Source of the DNA: Flavobacteriales bacterium
Lineage (GTDB): Bacteria > Bacteroidota > Bacteroidia > Flavobacteriales_F > PHOS-HE28
Direction: 5' to 3'
DNA: 64,000 bases
NCBI GenBank assembly: GCA_013360395.1
Contig: JABWBQ010000002.1
Coordinates: 16,703 to 80,702, forward strand
Part shown: piece by piece, positions 9,883 to 26,242 of the stretch
How the letters are laid out: each line of letters starts with the position of its first letter
How positions within the stretch are numbered: position 1 is the first letter of the stretch
The notes under the pieces: generated by a model
Seen by the model: only the letters and a program-made list of their open reading frames with translations
Databases searched by the model: none
What the model was told of the DNA's origin: nothing
Program-made: the position numbers and the translations under genes

Positions 9883-12800
9883 ATGTCAACAGCCGTAGCC
9901 CCTCCATACGTCCCCAAGCACAAGATCCGCGTGGTCACCGCCGCCTCGTTGTTCGATGGTCACGATGCCGCCATCAACATCATGCGGCGGATCATCCAGA
10001 GCACCGGCGCCGAGGTGATCCACCTGGGGCACGACCGCAGCGTGGAGGATGTGGTGAACACCGCGATCCAGGAGGATGCCCACGCCATTGCCATGACCAG
10101 CTACCAGGGCGGGCACGTGGAGTACTTCAAGTACATGCACGACCTGCTGAAGGAGAAGGGCGCGGGGCACATCAAGATCTTCGGCGGCGGCGGGGGTACC
10201 ATCCTGCCCAGCGAGATCGAGGAGTTGCACGCCTACGGCATCACGCGGCTGTACCACCCGGACGATGGCCGCGCCATGGGCCTGCAGGGCATGATCAACG
10301 ACATGCTGGAGCAGGCCGACTACGACCTGAGCGACCAGGTGAACGGTGAGGCGAAGAAGCTGACCCCGCAGAACTGGACGGCCATCGCCAAGCTGATCAG
10401 CACGGCGGAGAACCACCCGCAGGTGTTCGAGAAGATCGCCGACGAGGTCCACAAGAAGGCCGCGGCCAGCAAGGCGCCGGTGCTGGGCATCACGGGCACG
10501 GGCGGTGCGGGCAAGAGCAGCATGGTGGATGAGCTGATCCGTCGTTTCGTGCTGGACCAGCCCGGCAAGACCATCGGCGTGATCAGCGTGGACCCCAGCA
10601 AGCGCAAGACCGGCGGCGCGTTGCTGGGCGACCGCATCCGCATGAACAGCATCCGCGGCGAGCGGGTGTACATGCGCAGTCTCGCTACGCGGCAGAGCAA
10701 CCTCGCGCTCAGCAAGCACGTGAAGGAAGCCGTGGCCATCCTGAAGGCAGCGGGCTTCGACCTGGTGGTGCTGGAGACCAGCGGCATCGGCCAGAGCGAC
10801 ACCGAGATCCTGGATCACAGTGATGTTTCGCTCTACATCATGACGCCCGAGTTCGGTGCGGCCACGCAGCTGGAGAAGATCGACATGCTCGACTTCGCCG
10901 ACGTGGTGGCCATCAACAAGTTCGACAAGCGCGGCGCCCTCGATGCCCTGCGCGACGTGAAGAAGCAGTACAAGCGCAACCACCAACTGTGGGACGCCAA
11001 GGACGAGGACCTGCCCGTGGTGGGCACCATCGCCAGCCAGTTCAACGACCCCGGCACCAACGCCCTCTACGCGCGGCTGATGCGCAAGATCAAGGAGAAG
11101 ACCGGCATCGAGCTCGATAGCAGCTTCCACGCGCACGACGAGATGAGCGAGAAGGTGTGGATCATCCCGCCCGCCAAGAGCCGCTATCTGAGCGAGATCA
11201 GCGAGAGCAATCGGAGGTATGATGGCAAGGTGCGCAAGCAGGCGGAGATCGCGGACAAGCTGTACGGGTTGTATTCGGCTGTACTCACCTTCGGTGGCAC
11301 TGACCTTTTGGAGTCGGAAGTCCCGAGGCCCCTGAGTCACGAGTCGGGCGCGAAAGCGACTCACGACTCACGACTTACGGACTCAGTCGACTTCCTCATT
11401 CAAAGGTTCGAAGAACTGAAGAAAGACCTGGATCCCCACCTCTGGTCCATGCTCCAGAACTGGAAGGCCGAGGAGGAACGCTACTCCGGCGAGTTCTACA
11501 CCTACACCGTGCGAGGCAAGGAGATCAAGGTGCCGAACCACAGCGAGAGCCTCAGTCACCTGAAGATCCCGAAAGTCGCGCTGCCGAAGTTCCGCAGCTG
11601 GGGCGACAAGGTGCGTTGGGCCATGCAGGAGAACACGCCCGGCTTCTTCCCCTACACCGCGGGCATCTACCCGTTCAAGCGCACCGGCGAGGACCCCGCG
11701 CGGATGTTCGCCGGCGAGGGCGGCCCCGAGCGCACCAACAAGCGCTTCCACTACGTGAGCCAGGGCATGCCCGCCAAGCGCCTCAGCACCGCCTTCGACA
11801 GCGTGACGCTCTATGGCAACGACCCCGGCCGTCGTCCCGACATCTACGGCAAGGTGGGCAACAGCGGCGTGAGCATCTGCTGCCTCGACGATGCCAAGAA
11901 GCTCTACAGCGGCTTTGACCTCAGCGACCCGAAGACCTCGGTGTCCATGACCATCAACGGTCCCGCGCCCATGCTGCTCGGCTTCTTCATGAACGCGGCG
12001 ATCGACCAGAACTGTGAGAAGTACATACGGGAGCACGGGTTGGAGAAGGAGGTGGAGAAGAAGATCAAGGAGCGCTGGGAGAAGTTGGAGAAGGCGAATG
12101 GCGAATGGTCAATGGCGAATGGAGGGCGCGGCTTTTCCCATTCACCAACTCCCATTCACCATTCACCTCGACCTCGCTACCACGGAGACATACCTGCGGG
12201 GAACGATGGTCTGGGCTTGCTCCTCCTCGGCATCACCGGCGACCAGGTCCTCCCGAAAGACGTCTACGAGAAGATCAAGGCCGAAACGCTGCAACAGGTC
12301 CGCGGCACCGTGCAGGCCGACATCCTGAAGGAAGACCAGGCGCAGAACACCTGCATCTTCAGCACCGAGTTCGCGCTGCGGCTCATGGGCGACGTGCAGC
12401 AGTACTTCATCGACAAGAAAGTCCGCAACTTTTACAGCGTCAGCATCAGCGGCTACCACATCGCGGAGGCCGGCGCCAACCCCATCAGCCAGCTCGCCTT
12501 CACGCTGGCCAACGGCTTCACCTACGTGGAGTACTACCTGAGCCGCGGCATGGACATCAACGCTTTCGCGCCGAACCTCAGCTTCTTCTTCAGCAACGGC
12601 ATGGACCCCGAGTACGCCGTGATGGGCCGCGTGGCGCGCCGCCTCTGGGCCAAGGCGCTCAAGCACCGCTACGGCGCCGACGAGCGCAGCCAGATGCTGA
12701 AGTACCACATCCAGACCAGCGGCCGCAGCCTCCACGCGCAGGAGATCGACTTCAACGACATCCGCACCACGCTCCAGGCGCTGTACGCCATCTACGACAA

Positions 12801-14443: not shown

Positions 14444-14659
14444 ATGGCCTCGGCGCACAACTACATCCAACTGTCGTCCCTTCCGGAGGATGTTCGCCAG
14501 CAGGTGCTCGACTTCATCGAGTTCCTGATGCGGCGCCGTCAGGGCAACGAGCCGAAGGAGAAGCGCAAGACACCGGTGCCCGGCCTGGCCAAAGGCATGG
14601 TCACCGTGCCAGCAGACTTCGATGCACCCTTGGATGACTTCAAGGAGTACATGGAATGA
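14444..14659 (+). CDS. DUF2281-like antitoxin (VapB-type partner of the PIN toxin)
   Basis: 71 aa. ...LPEDVRQQVLDFIEFLMRR... and the C-terminal DFDAPLDDFKEYME are characteristic of DUF2281 antitoxins. ATGA overlap with the PIN gene. Confidence 0.6.
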   Translation: MASAHNYIQLSSLPEDVRQQVLDFIEFLMRRRQGNEPKEKRKTPVPGLAKGMVTVPADFDAPLDDFKEYME

Positions 14660-15042
14660 AGCTGTTGCTTGACACGCACGTCCTGCTTTGGTTCCAGGCG
14701 GGCGACCAAGCATTGCCGAAAGCGGCCGAGCAGGCCATCCGATCCGAGGCCAATGAAGCGTTCGTCAGCATGGTCTCCTTCTGGGAGATCGGACTGAAGC
14801 ATAGCATTGGCAAGCTGCCCTTACGTAAGCCGCTGGATGTATTCCTCAGCACGATCACTGAGGCAGCATTCCAGATACTCCCGCTGGACATCCCACACAT
14901 TGTTGCTTCTTCGGCACTGCCGCTGCACCACCGAGACCCGTTCGACCGGATGCTGATCGGGCAGGCGAAGCATGAAGGCATGCACCTGATCACCGTGGAT
15001 GCGCAGTTCCGGGCATACGATGTGCCACTGATCGGTTTGTGA
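14656..15042 (+). CDS. vapC: PIN domain toxin (VapC family)
   Basis: 128 aa. N-terminal LLDTHVLLW and the conserved acidic residue positions of the PIN fold. Translationally coupled to the upstream small gene. Confidence 0.75.
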   Translation: MKLLLDTHVLLWFQAGDQALPKAAEQAIRSEANEAFVSMVSFWEIGLKHSIGKLPLRKPLDVFLSTITEAAFQILPLDIPHIVASSALPLHHRDPFDRMLIGQAKHEGMHLITVDAQFRAYDVPLIGL

Positions 15043-15118
15043 TGACCATCATGCTGAGCGAAGCGAAGTCCCGCCGTAGCGACCGTGGCCGAGGAACGAG
15101 GCGTACGGACGCTGGAGC

Positions 15119-15158
15119 GGGATTCGAGGTGGGGGGGCAGTACAGAAGGAACATGTAG
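15119..15158 (+). repeat. short reiteration of the icmF 3' terminus (gggattcgaggtgggggggcagtacagaaggaacatgtag)
   Basis: Fourth copy of the icmF terminus. Lies between the PIN gene and the Fic gene. Confidence 0.7.
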
Positions 15159-15186
15159 TGCTGTTCAGCATCACCAAGATGAACAC

Positions 15187-15969
15187 ATGCCTGTGGCCCT
15201 GCTAGTCAACACATACCTGCCAGCATATCGCGCACAGCTGAACCTGCCGCTCGCTGAGCTTATCGCCACGCTCGCCGAGGAGCGCAACGGTGGCGGCGCT
15301 GACCTGCTCAACCTGTATGAGAGCGCCGTGGCCAGCAGCCAGATCGAGGGCAGCAAGGTCACCCTCGACCTTTTCAAACGCACCATGGAGGCCGCTGGGA
15401 GCGGGCCCAGACCGCGCGATGTGCAGGAAGTGGCCGATCTGGTGAGCGCCTACCGCTTCGCTCAAGTGAACCCGCTCAACATCGCCAACCTGCTCGAAGC
15501 GCACCGCATCGCATCAGCATTGCTCGTCAACGCCAACGATCGTGGCGCCTGGCGCACAAAGGGCGTTAAGGTGGGCAATGCCATCACCACCGTGTACATG
15601 GCCCCGCATCAGAGCCTGGTGCCATCGCTCATGGACCAGCTGATGGAGGAGACCGGTACGCTCTTGGATCAGAAGCTCACAATCGAAGAGGCGTTCTATT
15701 TCGCCGCGCTCCTGCACCTCGTCTTCGTCAAGGTGCATCCTTTCATCGACGGCAATGGACGCACCGGCCGTCTATTGGAGAAGTGGTTCCTCGAGAGCCA
15801 CATCGGCCCGATCGCATGGAGCATCCGCAGCGAACGCTACCTGATCCGCAACCTCGACGATTACTACGATACACTTGCCGCTGTCGGACCGGATTGGGGT
15901 AGCTTGCAATGGGACCGCTGTCTGCCCTTCATGCTGCTGTTGCCGCAGGCGCTTACCATGAAACGATAG
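15187..15969 (+). CDS. Fic family protein (Fic/Doc AMPylase-type)
   Basis: Canonical Fic motif HPFIDGNGRTGR. Start taken at ATG 15187; the ORF-track extension to 15085 runs through the repeat copy. Confidence 0.8.
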   Translation: MPVALLVNTYLPAYRAQLNLPLAELIATLAEERNGGGADLLNLYESAVASSQIEGSKVTLDLFKRTMEAAGSGPRPRDVQEVADLVSAYRFAQVNPLNIANLLEAHRIASALLVNANDRGAWRTKGVKVGNAITTVYMAPHQSLVPSLMDQLMEETGTLLDQKLTIEEAFYFAALLHLVFVKVHPFIDGNGRTGRLLEKWFLESHIGPIAWSIRSERYLIRNLDDYYDTLAAVGPDWGSLQWDRCLPFMLLLPQALTMKR

Positions 15970-16060
15970 CATTGCGAGGAAGTGATCCGTGCCACCGAGG
16001 AAGAGAAGGAGCCGCAGATCGCGACGGTGGAGAACCTGAAATCCGCCTACGCCCCCGAGG
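15966..16060 (+). repeat. partial internal copy of the icmF tail (corresponds to icmF ~13170-13262: ...[25 protein letters not shown]...)
   Basis: gaagtgatccgtgccaccgaggaagagaaggagccgcagatcgcgacggtggagaacctgaaatccgcctacgcccccgag matches the icmF coding sequence and then diverges. Confidence 0.6.
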
Positions 16061-16129
16061 GGCCAAGGAACGCTTCACCTCCGGGAACGAGTGGCCGGAC
16101 TTTGGGTCGCTTACACACCGCCGTGCGGA

Positions 16130-17173
16130 TCAAGGGAAACAGAATCCGCCGGGGATGATGCCCGCTAGGAAGCTGCCGAGCTCCGTTCCGCCGGGGCTGT
16201 ACCGAAGGACCACACCGTGTTGCACGTAATCGACCGCATCGGAGACGTAGATGGTACCATTGTCCGGATCCACGCCGAGGCCGTAGAAGTTGCGGTTGTC
16301 GGCGGGGATGAAGGCATTGGTCGGCAGGACGCTGTCGTGGATGGCCATGCGGTACACCCCGCCGTCGAGGAAGTACAGCACATCGTGTGCGTCGTTGATG
16401 GTGAGCCGCCACGGTGATGCGGAAGCGGGAAAGGCGAAGCTGGCCTCCACCGCGAGCGTGGCGGGATCGAAGCGATGCAGTGCCGGGGCGATGCCGCCGC
16501 CCATGGACCCGCCGCAGAGGACCCAGAGCCTGCCGTTGGCATCCTGCCGGATGCTGCTGCCCCCGATGGAGACGGGGATGCTGTCGATGAGCTGGTCCGT
16601 CGCGGTGTCGATCACCAGCACCTGGTCGCCTTCCGGTGCGGTGACGAAGGCTTTTCCGTAGGCGAGCGCCAACTCCTCCGTCCGCCCGGGCACGGGGATG
16701 CTGCCGGTGATGGTGTTGGTGACCAGGTCCACCACGGCGATGGCATCCGCGAACAGGTCGGTCACGTAGGCCTTGCCATTGCTCACGGGCAGCAGGTAGC
16801 GCGGCGAACTGAACCCGGTGATGGTCGCGGTGGCGACGAAGGTCTGCGGGTCCACCACCACCACCTTGCCGGAGTTGTTCACGACCAGGTAGCCGCGGTC
16901 GTTGAACAGCGTCATGCTCTGGCACACATCCCCCAGCGCGCTGCCGTTCGCGGGCGCGTAGAGGTCCTCCACGGTGGTGCCGTTCGTCCTGTCGTGGTAG
17001 CTCACCGTCGCGTTGCCCCATCCGAAGTTGCCCTCGTTGGTGATGTACACCCCGTCAGAGCCGACCACGACCGGCGTGTCGTCCGGTGGTCCCGGTCGGT
17101 CCTTGCGGCAGGACGACGATCCCAGGGCGAGCAATGCGAGGCAGAGGAGCAGGAGCTTAGTACGCATGGGCAA
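16130..17173 (-). CDS. YncE-like beta-propeller lipoprotein (DUF5074-like), B12-uptake-locus associated
   Basis: Lipoprotein signal ...LALGSSSC. Repeated YVTD/IYVSD-type propeller motifs. Last gene of the riboswitch-controlled operon. Confidence 0.55.
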   Translation of the reverse strand: MPMRTKLLLLCLALLALGSSSCRKDRPGPPDDTPVVVGSDGVYITNEGNFGWGNATVSYHDRTNGTTVEDLYAPANGSALGDVCQSMTLFNDRGYLVVNNSGKVVVVDPQTFVATATITGFSSPRYLLPVSNGKAYVTDLFADAIAVVDLVTNTITGSIPVPGRTEELALAYGKAFVTAPEGDQVLVIDTATDQLIDSIPVSIGGSSIRQDANGRLWVLCGGSMGGGIAPALHRFDPATLAVEASFAFPASASPWRLTINDAHDVLYFLDGGVYRMAIHDSVLPTNAFIPADNRNFYGLGVDPDNGTIYVSDAVDYVQHGVVLRYSPGGTELGSFLAGIIPGGFCFP

Positions 17174-18143
17174 CGATGAGCGGGTGTGTGATGCGCTTGC
17201 CGGGCATCAGGACCTCCAGGAAATACGCGCCTGGGCGCAGTCCGTTGAGGTCCAGGTCGAGGATGTGCATGCCGACCGCCGGCCAGGTCCGCACCGGGCG
17301 GCCCTGGACATCGACGAGGATGATGGTGGTGGCCGTGGGCTCCGGGAGGCTCAACCGGGTGCTGCCGCAGGCGGGGACGGGGTAGAGGTGCGGCACGGCC
17401 TCCGGCGGGCCGTCCATGCCGACCGGTCCCTGGTGGATGACGCCCACGGCATCCAGGTCGAATCCGCCGGAGGCGAAGGGCGTGCTCCACGGGTCGTTGA
17501 TCTTTTGGCCCAGATGGTCGTGCGTGGCGTAGGCCTCCTGGATGCAACCGACCACATCCACGATCCGCACGTGGGTGATGGCGGTCACGTCCAGGCCGGG
17601 AGCGCCGGCGAGCTGGTCCAGGTCGAAGGGGGTGCCGAAGCCGCCGCGGTATTTCCCCGCGAGGTTGTCGACCTGGGTCGCATCCACCGCGCCGAACCCT
17701 TCCACCTGGGTGGTGGTCTGGGTGTTGCTGGTGGCCGGGAAGCGCACGAAGGTGGTGCCGTCGCTGCTCACCTCCACGAAGGCGAGCTCCAGGTAAGTGT
17801 CGCTGAAACTGTTCTCGAACACGGCGAAGTCCCAGCCGGGGCCGTTGGTGAGGGGCTGGGCGAAGGTGAGCGTGGCGGTGCCGCCATCGCCCAGGCTCAC
17901 CACCCCGTTGGTGCCCGCTGCGCCGGTGCCCAGGGAGTCGGCGCCCGTGCTGGCGGGGCCAAGGCCCGGGTCGGTGATGTCCATCGGACCGCGTTGCACG
18001 GTGCAGCCGGTGGCCCAGGCGATGAGGATCGTGCTGTCCTGCGCGATGGCGGTGGTGCCGGGCTGTCCCGCGGGTGGCGGGAACTGCGCACGGGCGGGGA
18101 GCACGGCGAGCAGCAAGGCGGCGCAGAGGGAGGGATGTTTCAT
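17157..18143 (-). CDS. cell-surface protein (DUF4465-like) with T9SS C-terminal domain
   Basis: True start at internal MKHPSLCAALLLAVLPARAQ (signal peptide). The ORF-track N-terminal 168 aa are a low-complexity artefact. C-terminal ...TTIILVDVQGRPV....PGAYFLEV... is CTD-like. Overlaps btuB-like by 4 nt. Confidence 0.5.
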   Translation of the reverse strand: MKHPSLCAALLLAVLPARAQFPPPAGQPGTTAIAQDSTILIAWATGCTVQRGPMDITDPGLGPASTGADSLGTGAAGTNGVVSLGDGGTATLTFAQPLTNGPGWDFAVFENSFSDTYLELAFVEVSSDGTTFVRFPATSNTQTTTQVEGFGAVDATQVDNLAGKYRGGFGTPFDLDQLAGAPGLDVTAITHVRIVDVVGCIQEAYATHDHLGQKINDPWSTPFASGGFDLDAVGVIHQGPVGMDGPPEAVPHLYPVPACGSTRLSLPEPTATTIILVDVQGRPVRTWPAVGMHILDLDLNGLRPGAYFLEVLMPGKRITHPLIVAHAY

Positions 18144-20050
18144 GGTTTCGACGGCCGGTGGAACTGCATGCTCACCCCGAGCTGGTAGTTGCGCATGGGC
18201 ATGGGCCGGTTGAGCATGGCTTCGTAGACCGTGTTGAGGATGTTGTTGCACCGGGCCTCGATGCTGAAGGTGCAGCGCTTCAGCGGGGGCGGCCGGTAGG
18301 CGAACCGCACGTTGGCCAGCCAGTAGGGCTCCAGGTAGGCCCGGTTGTCCGTGCTCGTGTACCGGTAGCCGGTGTAGCTCAGGGTGCCGGTGAGGGAGTA
18401 CCCCTGGTAGTTGAGGCCGAGCCGTCCCCGGCCGCTGTACATCGGCACATAGATCAGCTGTTTGTCCACCGAGGCGTCGTTGGCGCTGGTGCGGATCCGG
18501 TTGGTGGAGACGACGTGGTCGGTGAGCACCGCGAGCTGCACGCCCAGACGGCCCAGGTGGAAGTTCGCGGTGGTGTTCGTTTCCACCCCGCGGCTCCAGA
18601 CCTGCATCAGGTTGCGCGGGCTCCAGTAGGCGGGACCGGGCGTCCACTGGATCCAGTCGTCGATGAGCCGGTTGAACCAGGTGACCTCGCTGCGCACGGT
18701 GAGGCTTCTCCAGGTGCGGTGAAGCACTGCGCCCAGGTCGCCGCTGTAGCCTTGTTCGGAACGCAGGTCCGGGTTGCCGCCGGGCTGCCAGTGGAGGTCG
18801 TTGAACGAGGGCGTCCTGTACACTTTGGAGGCCTGCGCCTTCAGGGTCAACCAGCGCAGCACGACCTGCTCGGCGCCGAGGGAGAAGGTGAACGGCACGG
18901 CATGGCCATCGAGCACTTCCTGCCGCGCGGAGGCGCTGGCCACGAGGTGTTCGTTCCCGCTGGTGTACCGATAGGCGGCGAAGAGGGCGATGCGGTCCTG
19001 CCGGGGCTCCTGGGGGTATCCGTCCGCGGCGGCCCGCGCGTAGGTGCCGTTGAGGCCCAGGTGAACGTGGTGGCGTCGGGCGGGCTGCAAGCGCGTTTCC
19101 GCCTCGGCGATCAAGGTGCGCGAGCGGTTCAAGGCGGGCGCGGCGCCATCGGCGGCGTACCAGTCCAGGCGCTCGTCGAACCAGGCGACGCGTGCGCTGG
19201 TGGTCGCCCGATCCCCGGTGCGCTGCCAGTCCGCCGTGAGCCGCAGGCTTTGGTCGAGCTGCCGTGCGCTGCCTGGCGGTTCCACGGTGGTGGGGGGGAT
19301 GCGCCTGTCGCTTTCCTGGTACCAGGCGTGCGTACCGAGGCGCTGCCGGTCGGTCAGGCGCACATGCACATCGCCCAGGAGGCCGCGTTGCAGGAATGCG
19401 GCATCGGCGCGGTGCTGGTCCGGTCCGTCGCCGGCGGTGTTCCGGGGCAGGGTGAGGTCATTGTCGGCGGTGGCGTTGTACGCGGCAAGGCCCACGCTGA
19501 GCCTTCTTCCGGACCGTTGCACGCGCACCCGTTGCCGCAGGTCGGCGAAGCTGCCGATGGAAAGCCCGGCATCCACGCGCAGGCCGTCGTTGAAGAAGGG
19601 CAGGGCGTGGAGCAGGACCGCACCGCCGACCGCCCCGCTGCCCCAGAGGGCCGTGCTGCCGCCGTATTGCACGGCGATGCTGTTGGCCACCTGCACGGGC
19701 AGGAGCGACAGGTCAAGCTGGCCGTTCATGGGGCTGCCGATGTTGAACCCGTTCCAGAGCACGGCGGTGTGGAAGGCGCTTCCGCCGCGGAACGCGGCGG
19801 TGGCCAGCCCGCCGGGCCCGTAGCTCTTCACGAAGACGGGGGTCTCCTCGGTCAGCAGGCGGCCCAGGTCGGAGAAGCCGTGGTGCGCCAGTGCGGCGCT
19901 GTCCATCACGACGAGTTTCGTTCCGGGCGTCGCGGTGATGCGCGGCGCCACCACTTCCACGGCCCGGAGCAGCACCGTGTCCGTGAGCGACTGGCCGCAG
20001 AGGAGCGACCCCGCGACACAGGCACCGATGGACAGGAGCGGTCGCCGCAT
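18140..20050 (-). CDS. btuB: TonB-dependent outer-membrane receptor, BtuB-like (vitamin B12)
   Basis: 636 aa. N-terminal plug (DTVLLRAVEVVA... TonB-box-like). Beta-barrel with C-terminal ...LGVSMQFHRPSKP ending in an aromatic-rich motif. Sits in a cobalamin-riboswitch operon. Confidence 0.75.
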   Translation of the reverse strand: MRRPLLSIGACVAGSLLCGQSLTDTVLLRAVEVVAPRITATPGTKLVVMDSAALAHHGFSDLGRLLTEETPVFVKSYGPGGLATAAFRGGSAFHTAVLWNGFNIGSPMNGQLDLSLLPVQVANSIAVQYGGSTALWGSGAVGGAVLLHALPFFNDGLRVDAGLSIGSFADLRQRVRVQRSGRRLSVGLAAYNATADNDLTLPRNTAGDGPDQHRADAAFLQRGLLGDVHVRLTDRQRLGTHAWYQESDRRIPPTTVEPPGSARQLDQSLRLTADWQRTGDRATTSARVAWFDERLDWYAADGAAPALNRSRTLIAEAETRLQPARRHHVHLGLNGTYARAAADGYPQEPRQDRIALFAAYRYTSGNEHLVASASARQEVLDGHAVPFTFSLGAEQVVLRWLTLKAQASKVYRTPSFNDLHWQPGGNPDLRSEQGYSGDLGAVLHRTWRSLTVRSEVTWFNRLIDDWIQWTPGPAYWSPRNLMQVWSRGVETNTTANFHLGRLGVQLAVLTDHVVSTNRIRTSANDASVDKQLIYVPMYSGRGRLGLNYQGYSLTGTLSYTGYRYTSTDNRAYLEPYWLANVRFAYRPPPLKRCTFSIEARCNNILNTVYEAMLNRPMPMRNYQLGVSMQFHRPSKP

Positions 20051-20056
20051 GCCCTC

Positions 20057-21169
20057 CTACTGCACGACGATCGTACGCTTCGCGGTGCCGGTGTGCACCA
20101 CGTAGGCCCCGGCCGGCCAGGTGCTCACATCAACGCTGCGCACGCCGGTGCCCACGGGCAGCCGGGCCATGTGCCTGCCGGTGATGTCGTACACCGTGAT
20201 GGCCTGTGCGGCGTGGCCGGTGTTCAGGTGGAGCAGGTCGGTGGCCGGCTGGGGGTAGGCCTGCAGGAGCTCCTGGCTGGTCTCGGGAAGGCTTGTCGGG
20301 CCGGAGGCTGCCACGGGAAGGTCGGGCCGCAGGGCCGGTGCGAAGTCGGTGTACGAACAGCCGAAGAGCTCGCCGTTCGTAACCGTGTCGCTCACGCCCA
20401 TGTTCATGCTCCAATTGCCCAGGTTGGTCGCGCTCCAGGTGCTCCAGAAGGCGGGGGAGCCGCCGATGCCGGCGTGGGTGCCGTAGGTGATGTCGTTCAG
20501 GAAGCCGCCCACGATCACCACCTCGAGGAGCGGGTCGGCCGCGGCGATGGCGTTCATCATCGTCTGGCCGTCGGTGGTCCCGTCGAACCGGTAGCCCCAC
20601 GCATACGAATCCGTTCCGCTGCCATCCTGGAAGTCGATGACCAGCACGGCGCTGTTCGTCCCCGTGCCGACCCAGTAGGTGACGTCGCTGGCGGTGAACT
20701 GGAAGGGGGCGAAGGCGGCGAACGGTTCGGTCGGCGCCAGCGCCGGTGCGAAGTCCGTGTACGAGCAGCCGAACCACTCCCCGTTGGAAAGTACCTCGCC
20801 GATCCCGCTGTTCATGGCCATCGTGGCGATGTCGGTACCGGTCCAGGTGCTCCAGTAGTCGGGTGCGCCACCGATGCCGGCATGCACCCCGTAGGTGATG
20901 TCGTTGAGGAAGCCCCCCACGATGGCCACGTCGAGGTTCGTGTCCGCGGCGGCCACGTCGTTGAGCATGGTCCCGGCCGTGGCGGTCCCGTCGTGCAGGT
21001 AGCCCCAGGCGAAGCTCTGGCCGTCGAAGCTGCCGTCCTGGAAGTCGATCACCAGCACCGACGAATCGGTGCCCGAGCCGACCCAGTACTGCACGTCCTG
21101 GAGGGAGAATTGGGCTTGTGCGCTGGCCGGGGCCAGCAGCAGGGCGAGGGGGAGTATGCGTGTGTTCAT
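20057..21169 (-). CDS. secreted tandem-repeat protein with T9SS C-terminal sorting domain (first gene after the cobalamin riboswitch)
   Basis: Start at internal MNTRILPLALLLAPASAQAQ. Two ~140-aa internal repeats (...VQYWVGSGTDSSVLVIDFQDGS...GGFLNDITYGVHAGIGG... and ...VTYWVGTGTNSAVLVIDFQDGS...GGFLNDITYGTHAGIGG...). CTD ...ITVYDITGRHMARLPVG...GAYVVHTGTAKRTIVVQ. Confidence 0.6.
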   Translation of the reverse strand: MNTRILPLALLLAPASAQAQFSLQDVQYWVGSGTDSSVLVIDFQDGSFDGQSFAWGYLHDGTATAGTMLNDVAAADTNLDVAIVGGFLNDITYGVHAGIGGAPDYWSTWTGTDIATMAMNSGIGEVLSNGEWFGCSYTDFAPALAPTEPFAAFAPFQFTASDVTYWVGTGTNSAVLVIDFQDGSGTDSYAWGYRFDGTTDGQTMMNAIAAADPLLEVVIVGGFLNDITYGTHAGIGGSPAFWSTWSATNLGNWSMNMGVSDTVTNGELFGCSYTDFAPALRPDLPVAASGPTSLPETSQELLQAYPQPATDLLHLNTGHAAQAITVYDITGRHMARLPVGTGVRSVDVSTWPAGAYVVHTGTAKRTIVVQ

Positions 21170-21288
21170 CCGGTGGGGGTGTGTGGTTGCCTTGTTCAAG
21201 CTCCCAGGATGAAGTGCCGTGGAGATGCGCGAAGCGGCGCACGTTCCGGGCTTGCTCCTTTTCCTGGAAGCAAATGCCGTTCGTGCTG

Positions 21289-21445
21289 GCGACAGGTCTT
21301 CTGGCTTGCCCGCCTTCCGGTGCCTTCCCATCCACCTTGCGGTGGGCAGTGGCCTCTTGCCGGTCGGCTGCTTCGGGCTTACAGCTTCAGGTAAAGCCCA
21401 GGATTCGCACCTGGTTCCCTTTTCACCCCGGTGTGACCCGGGGAT
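21289..21445 (-). ncRNA. cobalamin (AdoCbl) riboswitch
   Basis: Minus-strand sequence ...GGGUGAAAAGGGAACCAGGUGCGAAUCCUGG...GGCCACUGCCCACCGCAAGGUGGAUGGGAAGGCACCGG...GCCAGAAGACCUGUCGCC contains the AAxxGGGAA / GGUG.AAUCC core, the GCCACUG B12 box, GGGAAGGC and the GCCAG.AGACCUG 3' element. ~120 nt upstream of the operon's first start codon. Confidence 0.8.
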
Positions 21446-21605
21446 CGACAGCGCGGCGAATGTAGGCGATCGAGGCCGCCGGCCAACAGGGAACGGTCAG
21501 GAACGGGAGAATGGCCCGGGGCCGGAGCGCCGACCGTGCTACGGGGGTGCGGCCGCGGCACTGCGGGGATCGTCAAATAAAAGTAAATAAATACCGGTAT
21601 ATGCT

Positions 21606-23081
21606 TTGAGCGGCTACCTTTGTGCCGGACCGAAAGCAACGACCATGGGAACGACCACAGGGATGATCCTCGACGTGACACGGCTGGCGCCGATGGAGAA
21701 GCACAGCACCATCTTCAACCGCATCGCACGATTGCAGGAGGGGGAGAGCCTGATCATCCACAACGATCACGACCCGGCCCCGTTGCGCTACCAGCTGGCG
21801 CACACCCACCAGGACACCGTGGCGTGGGAGTACCTGGAGCAGGGCCCGCAGTGGTGGAAGGTGAAGCTCACGCGCCGTGCGCCACGCAACGAGAAGGGGC
21901 GCAACATCCTGGATGTGACGCAGCTGGCGCCACACGAGAAGCACGCCACCATCTTCGCCCGCATCGCCCGTCTGCAGGGCGGGGAGAGCCTCACCCTCCA
22001 CAACGACCACGACCCGGTGCCGCTCCGCTACCACCTGGAGGCCGAGCACGGCGATGCCTACGGCTGGGAATACCTGGAGCAGGGGCCCGCATGGTGGAAG
22101 GTGAGGATCACCCGGCGGATCACCGGCGCCGGCGCGGACGGTGCGAATGAGCTGGATGTCACCAAGCTGGCCCCGCGCGAGAAGCATCCCACCATCTTCA
22201 GCCGTTACCACGCCCTGAAAGGCGGCGAGAGCCTCATCATCCACAACGATCACGATCCAAGGCCGCTGTACTACCAGATGCAGGGCGAAATGGGCGATGT
22301 GTTCACCTGGGAATACTTGGAGGAGGGCCCGCGGTGGTGGCGGGTGCGGATCACCAAAAGGTCGGCGGGCAACAGCGGCGAGCGGCTGGGTGAGATGGTG
22401 GTCCGGGACATGCGCAAGGCGGACGTGCTCAAGCGCAACGGCCTGGACTTCTGCTGCCACGGCGACATGACCTTGAACGAGGCCTGTGCGGCCCGGGGCA
22501 TCGACGTGGTGCGCGTGGAACAGGAGCTGCGCGAAGTGGAGAAGGACCAGGGCCGGTCGGCCCTGCCGTACGGCGAATGGGAGATCGACTTCCTGGCGGA
22601 CTTCATCGTCAACATGCACCATCGCTTCCTGCGCAACAACCTGCAGGACATCCGGACCTATGCCGCCAAGGTGGAGCAGGTGCACGGGGACAGCCATCCC
22701 GAGCTCCACCGCGTGAACGACCTGGTGCAGGCGTTGTGCGACGAGCTGACGGCCCACGTGGAGGACGAGGAGAAGACCCTGTTCCCCTACATCCGGCAGA
22801 TGGTGGCCGCCAGGAACGCGGGGCGAACGAGGCCGGCCAGCGCCATGGGCCCGCTGAACGAGAAGGTGGACAAGCTGGTGCTGGAGCATACCGAGGTCGG
22901 CGGCATGATCGACGAGCTGCACGACGTCACCGGCGGGTACGCCCCGCCTGCGGACGCCTGCGCCAGCTACACGCTGCTGTACCGCAAGCTGCAGGAACTG
23001 GAGGACGATACACACATCCACATCGCCCTGGAGAACCACCTCCTGTTCCGCAAGGCGGCGGAGATGGAGCTGATTGTCTGA
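21606..23081 (+). CDS. fusion of three DUF2249 repeats with a RIC/ScdA-type (repair of iron centres) di-iron hemerythrin-like protein
   Basis: Three ~90-aa repeats (LDVT.LAP.EKH.TIF.RIARLQ.GESL..HNDHDP.PLRYQL...W.V.ITRR). Then ScdA_N-like ...KRNGLDFCCHGDMTLNEACAARGID... and hemerythrin-like His/Glu-rich helices. Confidence 0.6.
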   Translation: MSGYLCAGPKATTMGTTTGMILDVTRLAPMEKHSTIFNRIARLQEGESLIIHNDHDPAPLRYQLAHTHQDTVAWEYLEQGPQWWKVKLTRRAPRNEKGRNILDVTQLAPHEKHATIFARIARLQGGESLTLHNDHDPVPLRYHLEAEHGDAYGWEYLEQGPAWWKVRITRRITGAGADGANELDVTKLAPREKHPTIFSRYHALKGGESLIIHNDHDPRPLYYQMQGEMGDVFTWEYLEEGPRWWRVRITKRSAGNSGERLGEMVVRDMRKADVLKRNGLDFCCHGDMTLNEACAARGIDVVRVEQELREVEKDQGRSALPYGEWEIDFLADFIVNMHHRFLRNNLQDIRTYAAKVEQVHGDSHPELHRVNDLVQALCDELTAHVEDEEKTLFPYIRQMVAARNAGRTRPASAMGPLNEKVDKLVLEHTEVGGMIDELHDVTGGYAPPADACASYTLLYRKLQELEDDTHIHIALENHLLFRKAAEMELIV

Positions 23082-23184
23082 TCCGAGCAACGGGCCGTGG
23101 AGGGGATAGTGGACTTCGTGTGAAGGGTGTGCCGGGTGGTGTACTTTTATTGGTGAGCAGGGGGAGGGCGTGGGGGAGAATGTG

Positions 23185-23295
23185 CGTGTGGAGAGGGGGT
23201 GAGAAAGGTGAGGATGGAGAGGGAGTGGGAATGGTGAGAAAGTGAAAAGGAGAGAAGGGAGAGAAGGGAGAGAAAGGAGAGAAGAGGAAGGCGTG
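23185..23295 (+). repeat. polypurine (GA-rich) low-complexity tract
   Basis: gagagggggtgagaaaggtgaggatggagagggagtgggaatggtgagaaagtgaaaaggagagaagggagagaagggagagaaaggagagaagagg... Almost exclusively G/A on the plus strand. Intergenic. Confidence 0.6.
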
Positions 23296-23377
23296 ATCGG
23301 GTGAAGCGGGACGGGCGAATGGGTGCAGGTCCGGAGTTGATGGAGGATAGGGGTGGTTCACGACGAACAACGGGTGG

Positions 23378-24199
23378 ATGGAAATGGGCAAACTGACGAT
23401 AGACGCCAACACGAAGATCGCGGCGCTGCTGCGGGAGAACCCGGAGGCGCTGGAGGCCATCGTTTCGATCTCGCCGAAGTTCACCAAGCTGCGCAACCCG
23501 TTGCTGCGCAAGTTGATGGCCTCGCGCACCACCATCGCCATGGCCAGCCGGATCGGCGGATGCCGGCCGGAGGACTTTTTCGCCAAGCTGCAGCCCCTGG
23601 GCTTTCGGATCGGCAGCGATGCCGTGGGTGAGGCCCCGGCACAGGCCGCGCCGATGCCGGCCTTCATGAAGCAGCTGAAACCTTCCGATGTCGTGGACCT
23701 GGACGTGCGCCCCATCCTCGCCGGCGGTGAGGACCCCTTCAACCTGATCCTGAAGAAGGTGGGTGAGCTGCAAGCGGGACAGGCGCTGCGGATCATCAAC
23801 GACTTCGACCCCGTGCCCCTGGTGCAGCTGCTGGGCAAACGCGGCTTCGAGACCTACGGCGAGGTGCTCCAAGGCGGGGTGTTCCACACCTATTTCTTCA
23901 AGGGCGGCGCCGTGCGGATGGGCGCCACGGAGGCCGGGAAGCGCAGTGCGGACTGGGCGGAGGTGCTCCAGCGATACGAGGGAAGGATGAAGGAGATCGA
24001 CGTGCGTGACCTGGAGATGCCGCTGCCCATGCTGTCCATCCTGGAAGCGCTGGACCAGCTGCCCGCCGACCAAGCGCTGTACGTCAACCACAAGCGCATC
24101 CCCATGTTCCTGCTGCCCGAGCTGGAGGACCGGCGGTTCGACCACCGGAGCTGGGAGGTCGGGGAGGGGGACGTGAAGATGCTGATCTTCAAGGCGTAG
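23378..24199 (+). CDS. DUF1858 + DUF2249 domain protein
   Basis: N-terminal ...KIAALLRENPEALEAIVSI... (DUF1858-like). Two DUF2249-like segments (VDLDVRPILAGGEDPFNLILKKV... and IDVRDLEMPLPMLSILEAL...). Confidence 0.5.
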   Translation: MEMGKLTIDANTKIAALLRENPEALEAIVSISPKFTKLRNPLLRKLMASRTTIAMASRIGGCRPEDFFAKLQPLGFRIGSDAVGEAPAQAAPMPAFMKQLKPSDVVDLDVRPILAGGEDPFNLILKKVGELQAGQALRIINDFDPVPLVQLLGKRGFETYGEVLQGGVFHTYFFKGGAVRMGATEAGKRSADWAEVLQRYEGRMKEIDVRDLEMPLPMLSILEALDQLPADQALYVNHKRIPMFLLPELEDRRFDHRSWEVGEGDVKMLIFKA

Positions 24200-25489
24200 A
24201 TGACCGGCTCCCCGCTCGGCAACGTGGCGCGCACCACATCCCACAGGGTGGTGATCCCCTTCTACGTGTACGGCGCGGCCGCACTGCTGGTCGCCACGGT
24301 GATGCTCCTTGTCTCCCACCGGTCGTTCACGGGCCACTACTTCCAGCCGCACCTCCTGGCCATCACGCACACCATGGCGCTGGGCTGGGCCACCATGATC
24401 ATCCTGGGCGCCGGCCATCAGCTGTTCCCGGTGCTGGTGGAGACCGACCTGTACAGCGAGGGGCTGGCGCGTGCCTCGTTCCTTCTGGCGGCCGTGGGCA
24501 TACCGCTGCTCGTGTACGGTTTCCACAGCTTCGACCTGGGGCTGCCGGCCCGCCTGGGCGGAACGCTGGTGCTCGGGGCGGTGCTGGCCTTCATGGCGAA
24601 CATCGGCATGGGGCTGGTGCGCAGCAAGAGGGAGAACGTCCACGCCGTCTTCGTGTTCACCTCCACGGCCTGGCTGCTGCTCACCGCGGCGCTCGGCCTG
24701 GCGCTGCTGTTCAACTTCACCCGGTCGCTGCTGCCGCACGATTCGGTGCATTACCTCGGCCTGCACGCGCACCTGGGCATCGTGGGGTGGTTCCTGCTGC
24801 TGGTGCTGGGGGTCGGCTCCCGGTTGGTGCCCATGTTCCTCATCTCCAAATACACCGCGCCGCGGCTGCTCTGGGCGGTGTTCATCCTGGTGAACACGGC
24901 GCTGCTGGGCCACACGGTGTTCTTTCTCGTGGACATGCCCGCGTGGTCGGACTACGTGCCCGTGACCATGGTGGCCGCGGCATTGCTGCTCTTCGCCCAC
25001 TACTGCCGCCAGGCCTACAGGCAGCGCATCCGCCGCAAGGTGGACGCCCAGATGCGCGTGACCCTGCTGGCGGTGGCCCTGATGCTGCTGCCCACGGCGG
25101 TGCTGCTGGTCCTCCTCACCTCCATCGCGCTCGGGGGCGGCGCGCAGGTCCGGGTGGCGCTGCTCTACGGTTTCACCATCTTCTTCGGCTGGCTCACGGC
25201 CATCATCCTGGGGATGACCTTCAAGACCCTGCCCTTCATCGTCTGGAACAAGGTGTACCGGCCGCGTGCCACCCTGGGCAGGATGCCCGGGCCCAAGGAC
25301 CTGTTCAGCGACCGCCTCTTCCTGGCGACGGTGGCGGCCTACCTGGCGGGGTTCACCCTCTTCGGCTGGGGCATCGCCCAGGCATCGGTCGTATTGTTGA
25401 AGATCGGTGCCGTGGCCCTGCTGGCCACGGCCTTGCTGTACAACTGGAGCATCGGCAGGATGGTGTTCATCAAGCAACTCGGACCATGA
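24200..25489 (+). CDS. polytopic membrane protein, possibly NnrS-like/heme-copper-type
   Basis: 429 aa with ~12 TM helices and conserved His inside helices (HTMALGW, GAGHQLFP, HLGIVGWF, LGHTVFF). Sits in a DUF2249/RIC/Rrf2 context. The family assignment is inferred only. Confidence 0.35.
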   Translation: MTGSPLGNVARTTSHRVVIPFYVYGAAALLVATVMLLVSHRSFTGHYFQPHLLAITHTMALGWATMIILGAGHQLFPVLVETDLYSEGLARASFLLAAVGIPLLVYGFHSFDLGLPARLGGTLVLGAVLAFMANIGMGLVRSKRENVHAVFVFTSTAWLLLTAALGLALLFNFTRSLLPHDSVHYLGLHAHLGIVGWFLLLVLGVGSRLVPMFLISKYTAPRLLWAVFILVNTALLGHTVFFLVDMPAWSDYVPVTMVAAALLLFAHYCRQAYRQRIRRKVDAQMRVTLLAVALMLLPTAVLLVLLTSIALGGGAQVRVALLYGFTIFFGWLTAIILGMTFKTLPFIVWNKVYRPRATLGRMPGPKDLFSDRLFLATVAAYLAGFTLFGWGIAQASVVLLKIGAVALLATALLYNWSIGRMVFIKQLGP

Positions 25490-25806
25490 GCGCACCCGGA
25501 CAGGACGAATTGATCGACAAGGCACTGGATGCCCTGCGGACCGTGGACGACCCCGAGGTGGGCCTCAACGTGGTGGACCTCGGGCTGATCTACGAGATCG
25601 AGATCGGTCCGGACGCGCGGGAAGTGGACTGCCTGATGACCTTCACCACGGAGTTCTGCCCCATGGGAGCATCGATCCAGGCGGGCGTGACCGAAGCGCT
25701 GAAGATGACCTTCCCCGAGGCGGCGGTGCAGGTGCGCATCACCTTCGACCCGCCCTGGAGCCAGTCCATGATCTCCGAGGCGGGCCGGATGTTCCTTGGC
25801 GGATAG
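25486..25806 (+). CDS. DUF59 / Fe-S cluster assembly (SufT/MIP18-like) protein
   Basis: ~106 aa. ...DPEVGLNVVDLGLIYEIEI... with the conserved Cys (FTTEFCPMG) of the DUF59 family. ATGA overlap with the upstream gene. Confidence 0.65.
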   Translation: MSAPGQDELIDKALDALRTVDDPEVGLNVVDLGLIYEIEIGPDAREVDCLMTFTTEFCPMGASIQAGVTEALKMTFPEAAVQVRITFDPPWSQSMISEAGRMFLGG

Positions 25807-26242
25807 GACCATGCTGAGCCTGACGTGCAAGGCCGCCATCAAGGCCGTGACCTTCCTGGGGTCGCGGCTCGCCTCCGGCGAACGCTCGAGCCTGAAGGAG
25901 GTGGCAGCGTTCATCGACGAGAACGAGCACACCGTGGGCAAGCTGCTGCAACGGCTGGTGAAGGCCGGGGCCATCAAGAGCGCCAAGGGACCCAACGGCG
26001 GCTTCTACATGACGCCCCGCCAGGTGGAACAGCGGGTGATGCGCATCGTGGAGGCGATCGACGGCAAGGCGGTCTTCCAGGAGTGCGGCCTGGGCTTGCG
26101 CCGGTGCAGCGATGCGCGTCCGTGCCCCTTCCATGAACGCTACAAGCCCATCCGCGACCAGTTCCGGCAGCTGTGCGAGCACCAGCGTGTGAAGGACCTG
26201 TATGAAGAGGTCAACAGCGGGTCGGCGTACCTGGTGGGTTGA
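25796..26242 (+). CDS. Rrf2 family transcriptional regulator (NsrR/IscR-like, 3-Cys cluster-binding)
   Basis: N-terminal wHTH (...AIKAVTFLGSR...SLKEVAAFIDENEHTVGKLLQRLVKAGAIKSAKGPNGGF). Cys triad C-x7-C-x5-C (CGLGLRRCSDARPC). Confidence 0.75.
   Translation: MADRTMLSLTCKAAIKAVTFLGSRLASGERSSLKEVAAFIDENEHTVGKLLQRLVKAGAIKSAKGPNGGFYMTPRQVEQRVMRIVEAIDGKAVFQECGLGLRRCSDARPCPFHERYKPIRDQFRQLCEHQRVKDLYEEVNSGSAYLVG

Follow-up and report, generated by a model that had tools for sequence, protein, structure and literature searches.

A run of five genes, A to E, forms one conserved, operon-like module in Bacteroidota. With somewhat better than even confidence in the explanation as a whole, we propose that it is an autoregulated stress operon in which an Rrf2-family repressor controls a RIC protein together with a membrane module encoded by genes B, C and D. 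The five ORFs lie on the + strand in the region 21606-26242 of a 64,000-nucleotide stretch of a Flavobacteriales contig, hereafter the window. The domain calls of all five genes were backed by Pfam and NCBIfam, and the Pfam searches supported all domain assignments of an earlier note made from this DNA.

Organization and conservation of the operon

The order and strand A-B-C-D-E were kept in nearly all sufficiently long loci that we fetched from Bacteroidota and their relatives, a synteny that excludes a chance neighborhood. The coherent gene set recognized in the earlier note recurs as an operon-like module across the fetched Bacteroidota loci, and among species-representative genomes at least 545 stretches contained gene C. 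By their window coordinates, genes B, C, D and E abut or overlap, and genes A and B are separated by a 296-bp spacer, in which a second, unregulated promoter could hide. Every part of A to E is already annotated piecemeal in databases, and the module is not a new kind of system. What is new here is the conserved palindrome, the fusions of gene C homologs to DUF59, the core triad lacking RIC and the recurrent neighbors.

The RIC protein and its DUF2249 repeats

Gene A (21645..23081, 478 aa) encodes a RIC protein comprising three His-type DUF2249 repeats (residues 10-82, 90-163 and 171-245; nt 21672-22379), a ScdA_N domain (nt ~22380-22538) and a di-iron hemerythrin domain (nt ~22608-23057). The reading of three tandem DUF2249 domains fused to a ScdA/YtfE-type protein was borne out by a Pfam score of 254 bits for DUF2249 over three stretches, by the matches to ScdA_N (PF04405, E 5e-17) and Hemerythrin (E 2e-15), and by the RIC model TIGR03652, which the protein passed (208.4 bits, cut-off 204.7) with residues 261-484 of the 491-aa ORF covering model positions 1-216 of 216. 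The start had been placed at TTG 21606, but the most likely one is ATG 21645, which lies 43 bp past the operator described below and downstream of the -7 box.

The di-iron ligands of YtfE are H84, H105, H129, E133, H160, H204 and E208, and all seven (five His and two Glu) are present in gene A. In the DFCC.G motif of ScdA_N, C271 is at least 95% conserved among 67 orthologs and C270 70-95%. Judged by sequence, gene A thus encodes a genuine, intact RIC. Each DUF2249 repeat is TusA-like and carries a conserved KH...NDHDP motif, which may serve as a metal- or small-ligand-binding site or as a docking site.

The number of repeats per RIC varied among 67 species loci, with one in 41, two in 5, three in 13 and four in 8; judging from protein length, as many as ~6 may occur. 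The repeats are old positional orthologs. More than 3000 homologs of gene A were found at E <= 0.001, and all but 2 of the 120 homologs listed combined DUF2249, ScdA_N and hemerythrin. The fusion had been called unusual, but by these counts the triple-repeat form is a common lineage variant.

The core triad B-C-D

Gene B (23378..24199, 273 aa) combines a DUF1858 domain (E 7e-12) with two divergent DUF2249 domains (two stretches, E 1.5e-28) that lack the KH and NDHDP motifs. The DUF1858 and DUF2249 assignment of the earlier note holds, as does its count of five DUF2249 copies, three in gene A and two in gene B.

Compared by description, the architecture of gene B is that of DrpB of Thermus thermophilus, DUF1858 + 2xDUF2249 (PMC6282519). 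This raises the alternative of a sensor, in which the membrane protein and the DUF2249 proteins would perceive nitrate, nitrite or NO and adjust the expression of respiratory genes, with no role in repair or detoxification. In Thermus, DrpB is membrane-associated and DrpA reportedly periplasmic, and loss of either derepresses nar/dnr, so that nitrate-reductase expression rises and its nitrate dependence disappears (PMC6282519). DUF2249 genes of the haloarchaeal Haloferax are induced with nir, nor, nar and nos under denitrification (PMC11218638), and the gene A repeats are of the His type described for DrpA. The gene A protein, however, has no signal peptide, whereas DrpA is reported to be periplasmic, and its repeats are joined to a complete di-iron RIC domain of the catalytic type. 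The module also includes a DNA-binding regulator of its own and a DUF59 partner, and many host genomes have no linked respiratory N-oxide reductase. We consider such a sensor improbable.

Gene C (24200..25489, 429 aa) encodes a 12-TM protein with the heme-copper oxidase (HCO)/NO reductase catalytic-subunit fold. Its top structural matches were NorB and CcoN, it shows the 12-TM three-fold pseudo-symmetric arrangement, and it is a heme-copper-oxidase-fold homolog. The window protein had no Pfam match, scoring below the PF00115 gathering score, and the gene C profile matched no PDB sequence even at E <= 10; two of ten distant relatives scanned did pass PF00115 (41.5 and 56 bits vs 34.8). Gene C had been described as His-rich, with 12 TM segments and possibly NnrS-like. 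The 12 segments stand, but 14 His in 429 aa is not particularly rich, and NnrS was rejected in the absence of a PF05940 match at E <= 0.01. Families of 'HCO homologue', NnrS included, were reportedly treated by Pei et al. 2014 (Protein Sci 23:1220).

In gene C, TM10 (317-352) contains no His, and TM7 contains a single one, H238, which is not conserved. Canonical HCO proteins bind their cofactors through six His, one each in TM2 and TM6 and two each in TM7 and TM10. Because the TM10 His and the TM7 HH are missing, gene C would lack the canonical heme/Cu(Fe) binuclear center. Close relatives in the Bacteroidota subfamily share six invariant His, of which four are predicted to lie close to the outer face. 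Together with the NorB and CcoN matches and the linked NirK-like genes, which would provide a local source of NO, this might be taken to indicate an active non-canonical NO (or O2) reductase with heme on H57 and a putative metal site at H46/H189/H191, for which RIC, B and D would be electron donors or maturation factors. Across the wider family, however, H57 (TM2) and H189 (TM6) alone are invariant, H191 being kept in 70% and H46 in 56%. With no canonical ligands in TM7 and TM10, and no consistently linked cytochrome c or quinol-binding subunit, we regard an active reductase as very improbable.

Gene D (25486..25806, 106 aa), whose start overlaps the gene C stop (ATGA), encodes a DUF59/FeS_assembly_P protein (PF01883, E 8e-13, 48.9 bits vs 23.5), in agreement with its earlier description as a DUF59 Fe-S assembly protein. 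The cysteine of its TTxFCPMG motif, C58, is invariant in 76 orthologs. Gene D scored below the cut-offs of the SufT and SUF-associated equivalog HMMs (83.4 vs 202.6 and 78.5 vs 143.4 bits). In relatives of ~530 aa, DUF59 is fused to the C-terminus of a gene C homolog, and because of these fusions in some lineages gene D is predicted to dock on the gene C protein.

A core triad of a 2xDUF2249 protein (B'), C and DUF59 occurs in Calditrichota and Marinimicrobia without RIC or Rrf2, so its ancestral role need not concern NO. In one instance, in Calditrichota, the triad adjoins an Fe-SOD gene.

The Rrf2 regulator

Gene E (25811..26242, 143 aa) belongs to the Rrf2 family (PF02082, E 2.5e-18, 66.9 bits). 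Its most likely start is ATG 25811 (MLSLTCK) rather than the TTG at 25796 chosen earlier. A C-x6-C-x5-C-x2-H motif is invariant in 66 orthologs, and the three cysteines noticed previously, C92, C99 and C105, are joined by C6 and H108 as invariant residues.

NsrR of Proteobacteria and Firmicutes is an Rrf2-type, [4Fe-4S] NO-sensing repressor, with hmp, ytfE/dnrN, nnrS, nirK and norB among its targets. Gene E failed the NsrR equivalog NF008240 (21.5 bits, cut-off 182). Its best NCBIfam match was the SUF regulator (49.9 bits), followed by IscR (35.7) and NsrR, and it stayed below every curated Rrf2 subfamily cut-off. Because the SUF regulator model outscores those of IscR and NsrR, gene E could sense Fe-S status generally. 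Orthology to NsrR was rejected on this HMM score and on an operator that differs from the NsrR box. The looser label 'NsrR-like' is upheld by the Cys triad and by an operator upstream of gene A, but not by the NsrR HMM or the NsrR box. Gene E is most likely an NsrR-like, Fe-S-sensing repressor of a nitrosative/iron-center damage response.

Operator and promoter

The family operator consensus is a palindrome, AATAAAAGTA-N6-TACTTTTATT. In the window, the candidate Rrf2 operator AATAAAAGTA-AATAAA-TACCGGTATA spans 21576..21601, where an inverted repeat upstream of gene A had been anticipated, and it is the sole match in the 64 kb (0 expected). Its left half is perfect and its right half degenerate (TTT->CGG), with a PWM score of 22.7 vs 37-45 in other loci; repression in this window may be weak because of the degenerate half. 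A zero-mismatch operator was present in 39 of 83 sequences scanned, and in a count by fetched loci a perfect site was present in 46 of 83; there was never more than one per locus, and it always lay upstream of gene A.

TAnnTTTG is the consensus -7 box of Bacteroidetes sigma-A promoters. Such a box, TACCTTTG, lies on the + strand at 21615..21622, 13 nt downstream of the operator, and recurs at equal spacing in most aligned upstream regions; across loci, the operator stands ~50 bp before the gene A ATG. When metagenomes were scanned independently, 80 perfect sites were recovered, of which 51 preceded a DUF2249-RIC gene, 4 preceded B-C-D and 3 were found with a divergent nirK.

The second operator anticipated, upstream of 23378, was not found. 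A 10-mer search of the window yielded a perfect orphan half-site, TACTTTTATT, in the A-B spacer (23142..23151, + strand), which related loci do not share. The window contains this 10-mer at just one further place, in the left half of the operator, making two copies in all (0 expected). Since motif and regulator are both defined, the regulon is directly testable.

Genomic neighborhood

Genes recurring next to the operon encode hemerythrin (25 loci), truncated globin (10), a NirK-like protein (10) and cytochrome c (7), and nrfHA and nosDFYL were also linked; the NirK-like protein, nrfHA, truncated globin, hemerythrin and nosDFYL fit a nitrite/NO theme. The operon recurs in hundreds of Bacteroidota that are abundant in the environment (activated sludge, soil and freshwater), and many of them carry nirK or nos. 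From such sequence context, the operon may be responsive to NO.

A broader role is conceivable, namely a general Fe-S/iron-homeostasis and oxidative-stress operon in which gene E, like IscR or the SUF regulator, reports cluster occupancy, and the membrane protein, RIC and DUF59 take part in maturing or repairing Fe-S clusters, whatever the damaging condition. The ranking of NCBIfam models for gene E, its IscR-like cysteine motif, the resemblance of gene D to SufT and SUF-associated proteins and the Fe-SOD neighbor in Calditrichota speak for it. In other bacteria, mutation of RIC also confers sensitivity to H2O2 (PMC9268430), and this window holds no nitrogen-oxide genes near the operon. Yet suf or isc genes were linked to the module in none of the loci examined, and the recurring neighbors are instead the NirK-like protein, nrfHA, globins and nos accessory genes. 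As the gene E matches to Fe-S regulator models are all far below their cut-offs, we judge this broader role unlikely.

Proposed mechanism

From the observed domain identities, ligand conservation, synteny, operator/promoter geometry, fusion and neighborhood statistics, we infer the signal, the repressor action, the cofactor content and the roles of B, C, D and DUF2249 in the autoregulated stress operon as follows. Gene E would carry an Fe-S cluster, probably on C92, C99 and C105 plus C6 or H108, and bind as a dimer to the palindrome over the -33 region of the single promoter before gene A. Nitrosylation or loss of the cluster, through NO or nitrite-derived stress and possibly oxidants or iron limitation, would release gene E, and A to E would be transcribed. 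The RIC encoded by gene A would then act on damaged iron centers or in nitrite/NO chemistry.

Genes B, C and D would represent an older, tightly linked membrane module. Gene C, with a NorB/CcoN fold and its binuclear center lost, would probably hold a single heme on H57 and H189; gene D would dock on it, and the cytoplasmic, DrpB-like gene B protein would be the third partner. The module may supply electrons or iron/Fe-S handling to RIC and its clients at the membrane. More tentatively, B-C-D might be an undescribed membrane machine linking the quinone pool or a transmembrane heme to cytoplasmic iron/Fe-S; in Bacteroidota it would have come under a new NsrR-like repressor and been dedicated to RIC as its redox or iron partner.

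Proteins of the RIC/YtfE type occur widely, and in this operon of fixed order RIC is encoded together with DUF2249/DrpB, DUF59 and a protein of the HCO fold that has no binuclear center. The operon points to candidate partners of RIC and gives a way into the function of DUF2249 and of the 'degenerate' heme-copper oxidase branches. If B-C-D is such a membrane machine, it could be the physiological donor of electrons or iron that YtfE-type proteins have long lacked, and the His-type DUF2249 repeats could bind metal or NO stoichiometrically, with capacity tuned by the number of copies.

Comparison with known systems

YtfE of E. coli, ScdA of S. aureus and DnrN belong to the same RIC family. Unlike YtfE and ScdA, gene A bears one to several N-terminal DUF2249 domains (three in the window) and resides in the A-E operon instead of being monocistronic. 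In the RIC review, the words 'fused' and 'fusion' are applied to no RIC. The proposed roles of RIC, still debated, are iron donor, Fe-S repair and NO-forming nitrite reductase (PMC9052748, PMC9268430).

Gene C differs from NorB and CcoN in having neither the TM10 His pair nor the TM7 HH. Gene D shares PF01883 and the conserved T-x-x-x-C-P cysteine with SufT, SUF-associated proteins and PaaD; unlike SufT and the SUF-associated proteins, it falls short of the equivalog cut-offs and adjoins or fuses with an HCO-like membrane protein rather than belonging to a suf operon.

The Drp system resembles the module in gene B architecture, in the His-type repeats and in its link to nitrogen-oxide metabolism. 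In Thermus, however, DrpA and DrpB stand alone downstream of nar, whereas here the His-type DUF2249 is cytoplasmic and RIC-fused, and the HCO-like and DUF59 genes invariably come after gene B.

The NsrR regulons of Proteobacteria contain dnrN(ytfE), nnrS, hmp and nirK, and the NsrR box is gATGyAT-N5-ATrCATc (PMC1274295). Like NsrR, gene E has an Rrf2 fold and a conserved three-Cys motif, its palindromic operator overlaps the promoter, and its putative targets comprise genes for a RIC and for a membrane protein of the HCO superfamily, with nirK added in some cases. Within the half-site, the core AAGTAT is similar to ATGyAT, a likeness limited to that core, whereas the full palindrome differs from the NsrR box and has an even-length center. 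Unlike NsrR, gene E has the additional invariant Cys6 and His108 and is itself the last gene of the operon under its own control.

Gene content and organization of the operon

Between 21.6 and 26.2 kb, five open reading frames lie on the plus strand, with a strong GC3 bias as in real genes (the window has ~65% GC). The earlier note's observation of genes and domains was confirmed overall, and its domain names for A, B, D and E were each recovered by both Pfam and NCBIfam. Gene A (21645-23081) matched DUF2249 (254 bits over three stretches), followed by ScdA_N and Hemerythrin, and scored marginally over the cut-off of the curated RIC model TIGR03652 (208.4 vs 204.7 bits). Gene B (23378-24199) comprises DUF1858 and two DUF2249 stretches, gene C (24200-25489) encodes a 12-TM protein, gene D (25486-25806, plus strand) a DUF59/FeS_assembly_P protein, and gene E (25811-26242) an Rrf2 regulator. 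The most likely starts of A and E, both corrected from those first given, are the ATGs at 21645 and 25811, the latter because the motif MLS.TCK is conserved in 66 orthologues. The product of gene C is 100% identical to an NCBI protein of a Flavobacteriales MAG. The ATG of C directly follows the stop of B, the ATG of D overlaps the TGA of C, and E starts 5 nt past the end of D; B, C, D and E thus abut or overlap, a packing that single transcription units typically show.

The gene cluster proposed earlier turned out to be a conserved module with the same order across the fetched loci. In a collection with one genome per species, a profile of gene C hit at least 545 stretches that encode it. Nearly all of the 83 fetched loci with a long enough contig, including one from a Kapabacteria genome, keep the order A-B-C-D-E on one strand, and B, C, D and E are contiguous in every fetched locus. 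The module is widespread, and the window locus is an ordinary example of it. Among organisms that can be cultured, carriers are Flavisolibacter ginsenosidimutans, Niastella vici, Agriterribacter humi and a Mucilaginibacter sp. In some lineages genes are inserted between A and B, namely a stand-alone hemerythrin (25 loci) and a 154-aa lipoprotein-like protein (26 loci, among L004-L083) with no Pfam or NCBIfam match.

Some neighbors of the module recur: ten loci have a truncated globin and ten a NirK-like copper protein (TIGR02376 E-value 1.7e-62, under the equivalog cut-off), while a cytochrome c occurs in seven and a second Rrf2 protein in five. The genes nrfHA and nosDFYL were seen in one locus each. 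Seven loci also carry a conserved Cys-rich protein of ~600 aa without a family match (e.g. 10069-11910 in the fetched locus L001). The flanks of the operon in the window are unrelated, comprising a TonB-dependent receptor, T9SS-tailed proteins and an AraC regulator. On the left (14656-21331) lie genes for PIN-domain, Fic and DUF5074 proteins, the TonB-dependent receptor and an internally duplicated T9SS-tailed protein; no relation of any of these to the operon is apparent.

The DUF2249 repeats and the RIC fusion

The fusion of three DUF2249 repeats to a RIC protein had been considered unusual, which our searches did not support. With E ≤ 0.001 as the threshold, gene A retrieved more than 3000 proteins, and all but two of the 120 matches listed combine DUF2249, ScdA_N and Hemerythrin (478-757 aa); the organisms named among them are Flavobacteriales, Chitinophagales, Saprospiraceae and other Bacteroidia MAGs. 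Across 67 species-level loci, the RIC part is preceded by one repeat in 41, two in 5, three in 13 and four in 8, and the protein length of longer homologues suggests 5 to 6. The three repeats of gene A share 58-68% identity with one another, and each shares 77-90% with the repeat at the same position in other species, which argues for an old, maintained array rather than a recent duplication.

All 122 repeats share the motif L.VT.L.P..KH.TIF...HNDHDPKPL...W.Y.E.GP.W. Each gene A repeat adopts a β-α-β-α-β-β topology in the AlphaFold model (pLDDT 78), which, together with a weak Pfam TusA match on gene B, supports a predicted TusA-like fold with Lys-His in place of the TusA cysteine. The two DUF2249 domains of gene B are akin to each other and to those of gene A (hhalign probability 92-93%), and are devoid of the KH and NDHDP motifs. 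Homology of DUF1858 of gene B to ScdA_N of gene A was rejected at the sensitivity of hhalign (probability 0.1).

In four fetched loci (L021, L043, L079 and L083), a single-domain DUF2249 gene (ending in ...WEYLEQGPEWWKVKI) lies directly upstream of a one-repeat RIC gene, with the operator farther upstream, which hints at fission/fusion variants of the array. A further locus, L161, encodes a stand-alone 3xDUF2249 protein.

A conserved candidate operator upstream of gene A

Inverted-repeat operators had been envisaged upstream of both A and B. Aligning the 200 bp upstream of gene A from 68 loci exposed a palindrome, AATAAAAGTA-N6-TACTTTTATT. Each locus has at most one perfect copy; the 22-nt core is exact in 46 of the 83 fetched loci and the full 26-mer in 39 of 83 sequences scanned, window included. 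This candidate operator ends ~50 bp before the ATG of A, and 13 nt separate it from a downstream TAnnTTTG box, the -7 element of Bacteroidetes; it therefore covers the -33 region, a geometry expected of a repressor site.

When metagenome contigs were scanned independently with the perfect 26-mer, 80 loci were retrieved, and in 51 of them the adjacent gene is a DUF2249-RIC. In four loci the operator directly precedes B-C-D operons without A, and in another four it belongs to short RIC-hemerythrin-Rrf2 operons. Seven further contigs (L091, L092, L101, L102, L133, L149 and L164) carry a perfect operator ~40-55 bp from a conserved cupin-like gene of ~100 aa (MEMKEIYSCDKYKVLNV...; Cupin_2 24 bits, under the cut-off), a candidate second regulon member; nirK and the globin are candidate targets as well. 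In three of the 80 loci (L106, L111 and L165; also L139), a NirK-like gene diverges from the operator region of the RIC gene, which suggests that an NO-producing enzyme and RIC are under shared control in some genomes.

The operator in the window (21576-21601) has a perfect left half, while its right half reads TACCGGTATA instead of TACTTTTATT due to three adjacent substitutions (TTT to CGG); the -7 box (TACCTTTG, 21615-21622) keeps its spacing. With a PWM score of 22.7 vs 37-45 elsewhere, it is among the weakest sites of loci with an intact A promoter, and repression may therefore be relaxed in this genome. Another palindrome in this promoter, ATACCGGTAT, was rejected as an operator: comparison of 80 loci showed it to be the family operator's right half in mutated form, created by accident through the TTT to CGG change. 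A second site found within gene B in several loci (CATAAACGTATTCCTGTATTTTTATT, 87 bp before C) was judged a coding coincidence, because it scores 12-20 vs 37-45 for true sites and encodes the invariant peptide HKRIPxFLL.

No operator precedes gene B. The 296-bp A-B spacer (23082-23377) is strongly purine-rich on the plus strand and contains (GGAGAGAAG)x4 at 23249-23284 and 1.9 copies of a 26-bp unit at 23189-23238; related Flavobacteriales loci have different low-complexity spacers at this position. It holds an orphan perfect half-site, TACTTTTATT (23142-23151, 61 bp past the stop of A), a 10-mer occurring only twice in 64 kb (0 expected). This half-site is not conserved in related loci and has neither a matching left half nor a following -7 box. 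We found no operator or motif in the spacer conserved among the loci compared and no convincing terminator between A and B; a sigma-70 scan is uninformative for Bacteroidetes. In this genome, A and B-E may be carried on one transcript, with the spacer between them.

Membrane protein C and the B-C-D core

Gene C had tentatively been called NnrS-like, a membership we rejected in the absence of a PF05940 match; C in fact has no Pfam match at all, and its profile found nothing among PDB sequences even at E 10. A fold search was the one route linking C to solved structures, and it predicts a heme-copper oxidase (HCO)/NorB-CcoN-like fold. Some relatives of C pass PF00115. The family counts 2407 representatives at E ≤ 0.001. 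H46, H57, H73, H148, H189 and H191 are invariant among close relatives, and only H57 (TM2) and H189 (TM6) are universal over 114 diverse members. Histidine is missing from TM10, and none in TM7 is conserved, so C lacks the canonical ligands of low-spin/high-spin haem and CuB/FeB. Given such a ligand set, we regard a non-canonical NO reductase, which the NorB-like fold might bring to mind, as very improbable. An hhalign comparison with an approximate bovine COX1 sequence did not place the histidines of C on canonical HCO ligands significantly (probability <1%); TM2 of C resembled HCO TM10 there, as seen before, at that same probability.

Five distant members of the C family (~530 aa) carry a DUF59 domain fused at the C-terminus, and C-DUF59 fusions form at least 20 clusters, which argues that D may dock on C. 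Calditrichota and Marinimicrobia have a triad of a 2xDUF2249 protein (without DUF1858), C and DUF59, without RIC or Rrf2. B-C-D is therefore the older unit, which gained the Rrf2 regulator and a RIC with His-type DUF2249 in Bacteroidota.

Regulator E, interpretation and comparison with known systems

The Rrf2 Cys triad is present on alignment of 66 E orthologues, whose invariant residues are C92-x6-C99-x5-C105-x2-H108, plus C6 near the N-terminus. The description of E as NsrR-like holds in outline: E would work like NsrR or IscR, judging from its sequence, but it falls below the NsrR cut-off and is assigned to neither. Among curated subfamily models it scored 49.9 bits for the SUF regulator, 35.7 for IscR and 21.5 for NsrR, missing every cut-off. 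By sequence, the nearest solved structure to E is 6hsd/6y45 (E-value ~1e-4, over the DNA-binding part only), named 'Rrf2 family transcriptional regulator' in the PDB, which we take to be RsrR. An operon for general Fe-S homeostasis, to which the SUF score and the DUF59 protein would be suited and the NirK-like neighbors less so, seems unlikely to us.

The best-supported reading is that the operon would mediate an Rrf2 (Fe-S) repressed response to nitrosative or iron-centre damage, with RIC as a putative cytoplasmic effector and B-C-D as its possible membrane-anchored partner module; we infer the inducing signal, the cofactors and the function of DUF2249. The interpretation in the earlier note is supported in part; its claim of an unusual architecture is not. 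Our analysis newly contributes the operator, an analysis of the fold and ligands of C, the fusion of C to D and the B-C-D core.

The 'HCO homologue' families of Pei et al. 2014 reportedly conserve two histidines and may hold a single haem, a pattern that the ligands of C match. Thermus DrpA/DrpB tie DUF2249 domains to nitrogen-oxide metabolism (PMC6282519), and DUF2249 genes are induced under haloarchaeal denitrification (PMC11218638), which together give these domains an independent tie to that metabolism. A Drp-like sensor module, suggested by the shared domain, is a distinctly improbable alternative for an operon that also encodes RIC and its own Rrf2 regulator. The published NsrR box, gATGyAT-N5-ATrCATc (PMC1274295), is a different motif from the family operator, although the half-site cores are alike (AAGTAT here, ATGyAT in NsrR). 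NsrR regulons contain dnrN/ytfE, nnrS, hmp and nirK (PMC1274295), and the A-E operon parallels them in placing a RIC gene under putative Rrf2 control.
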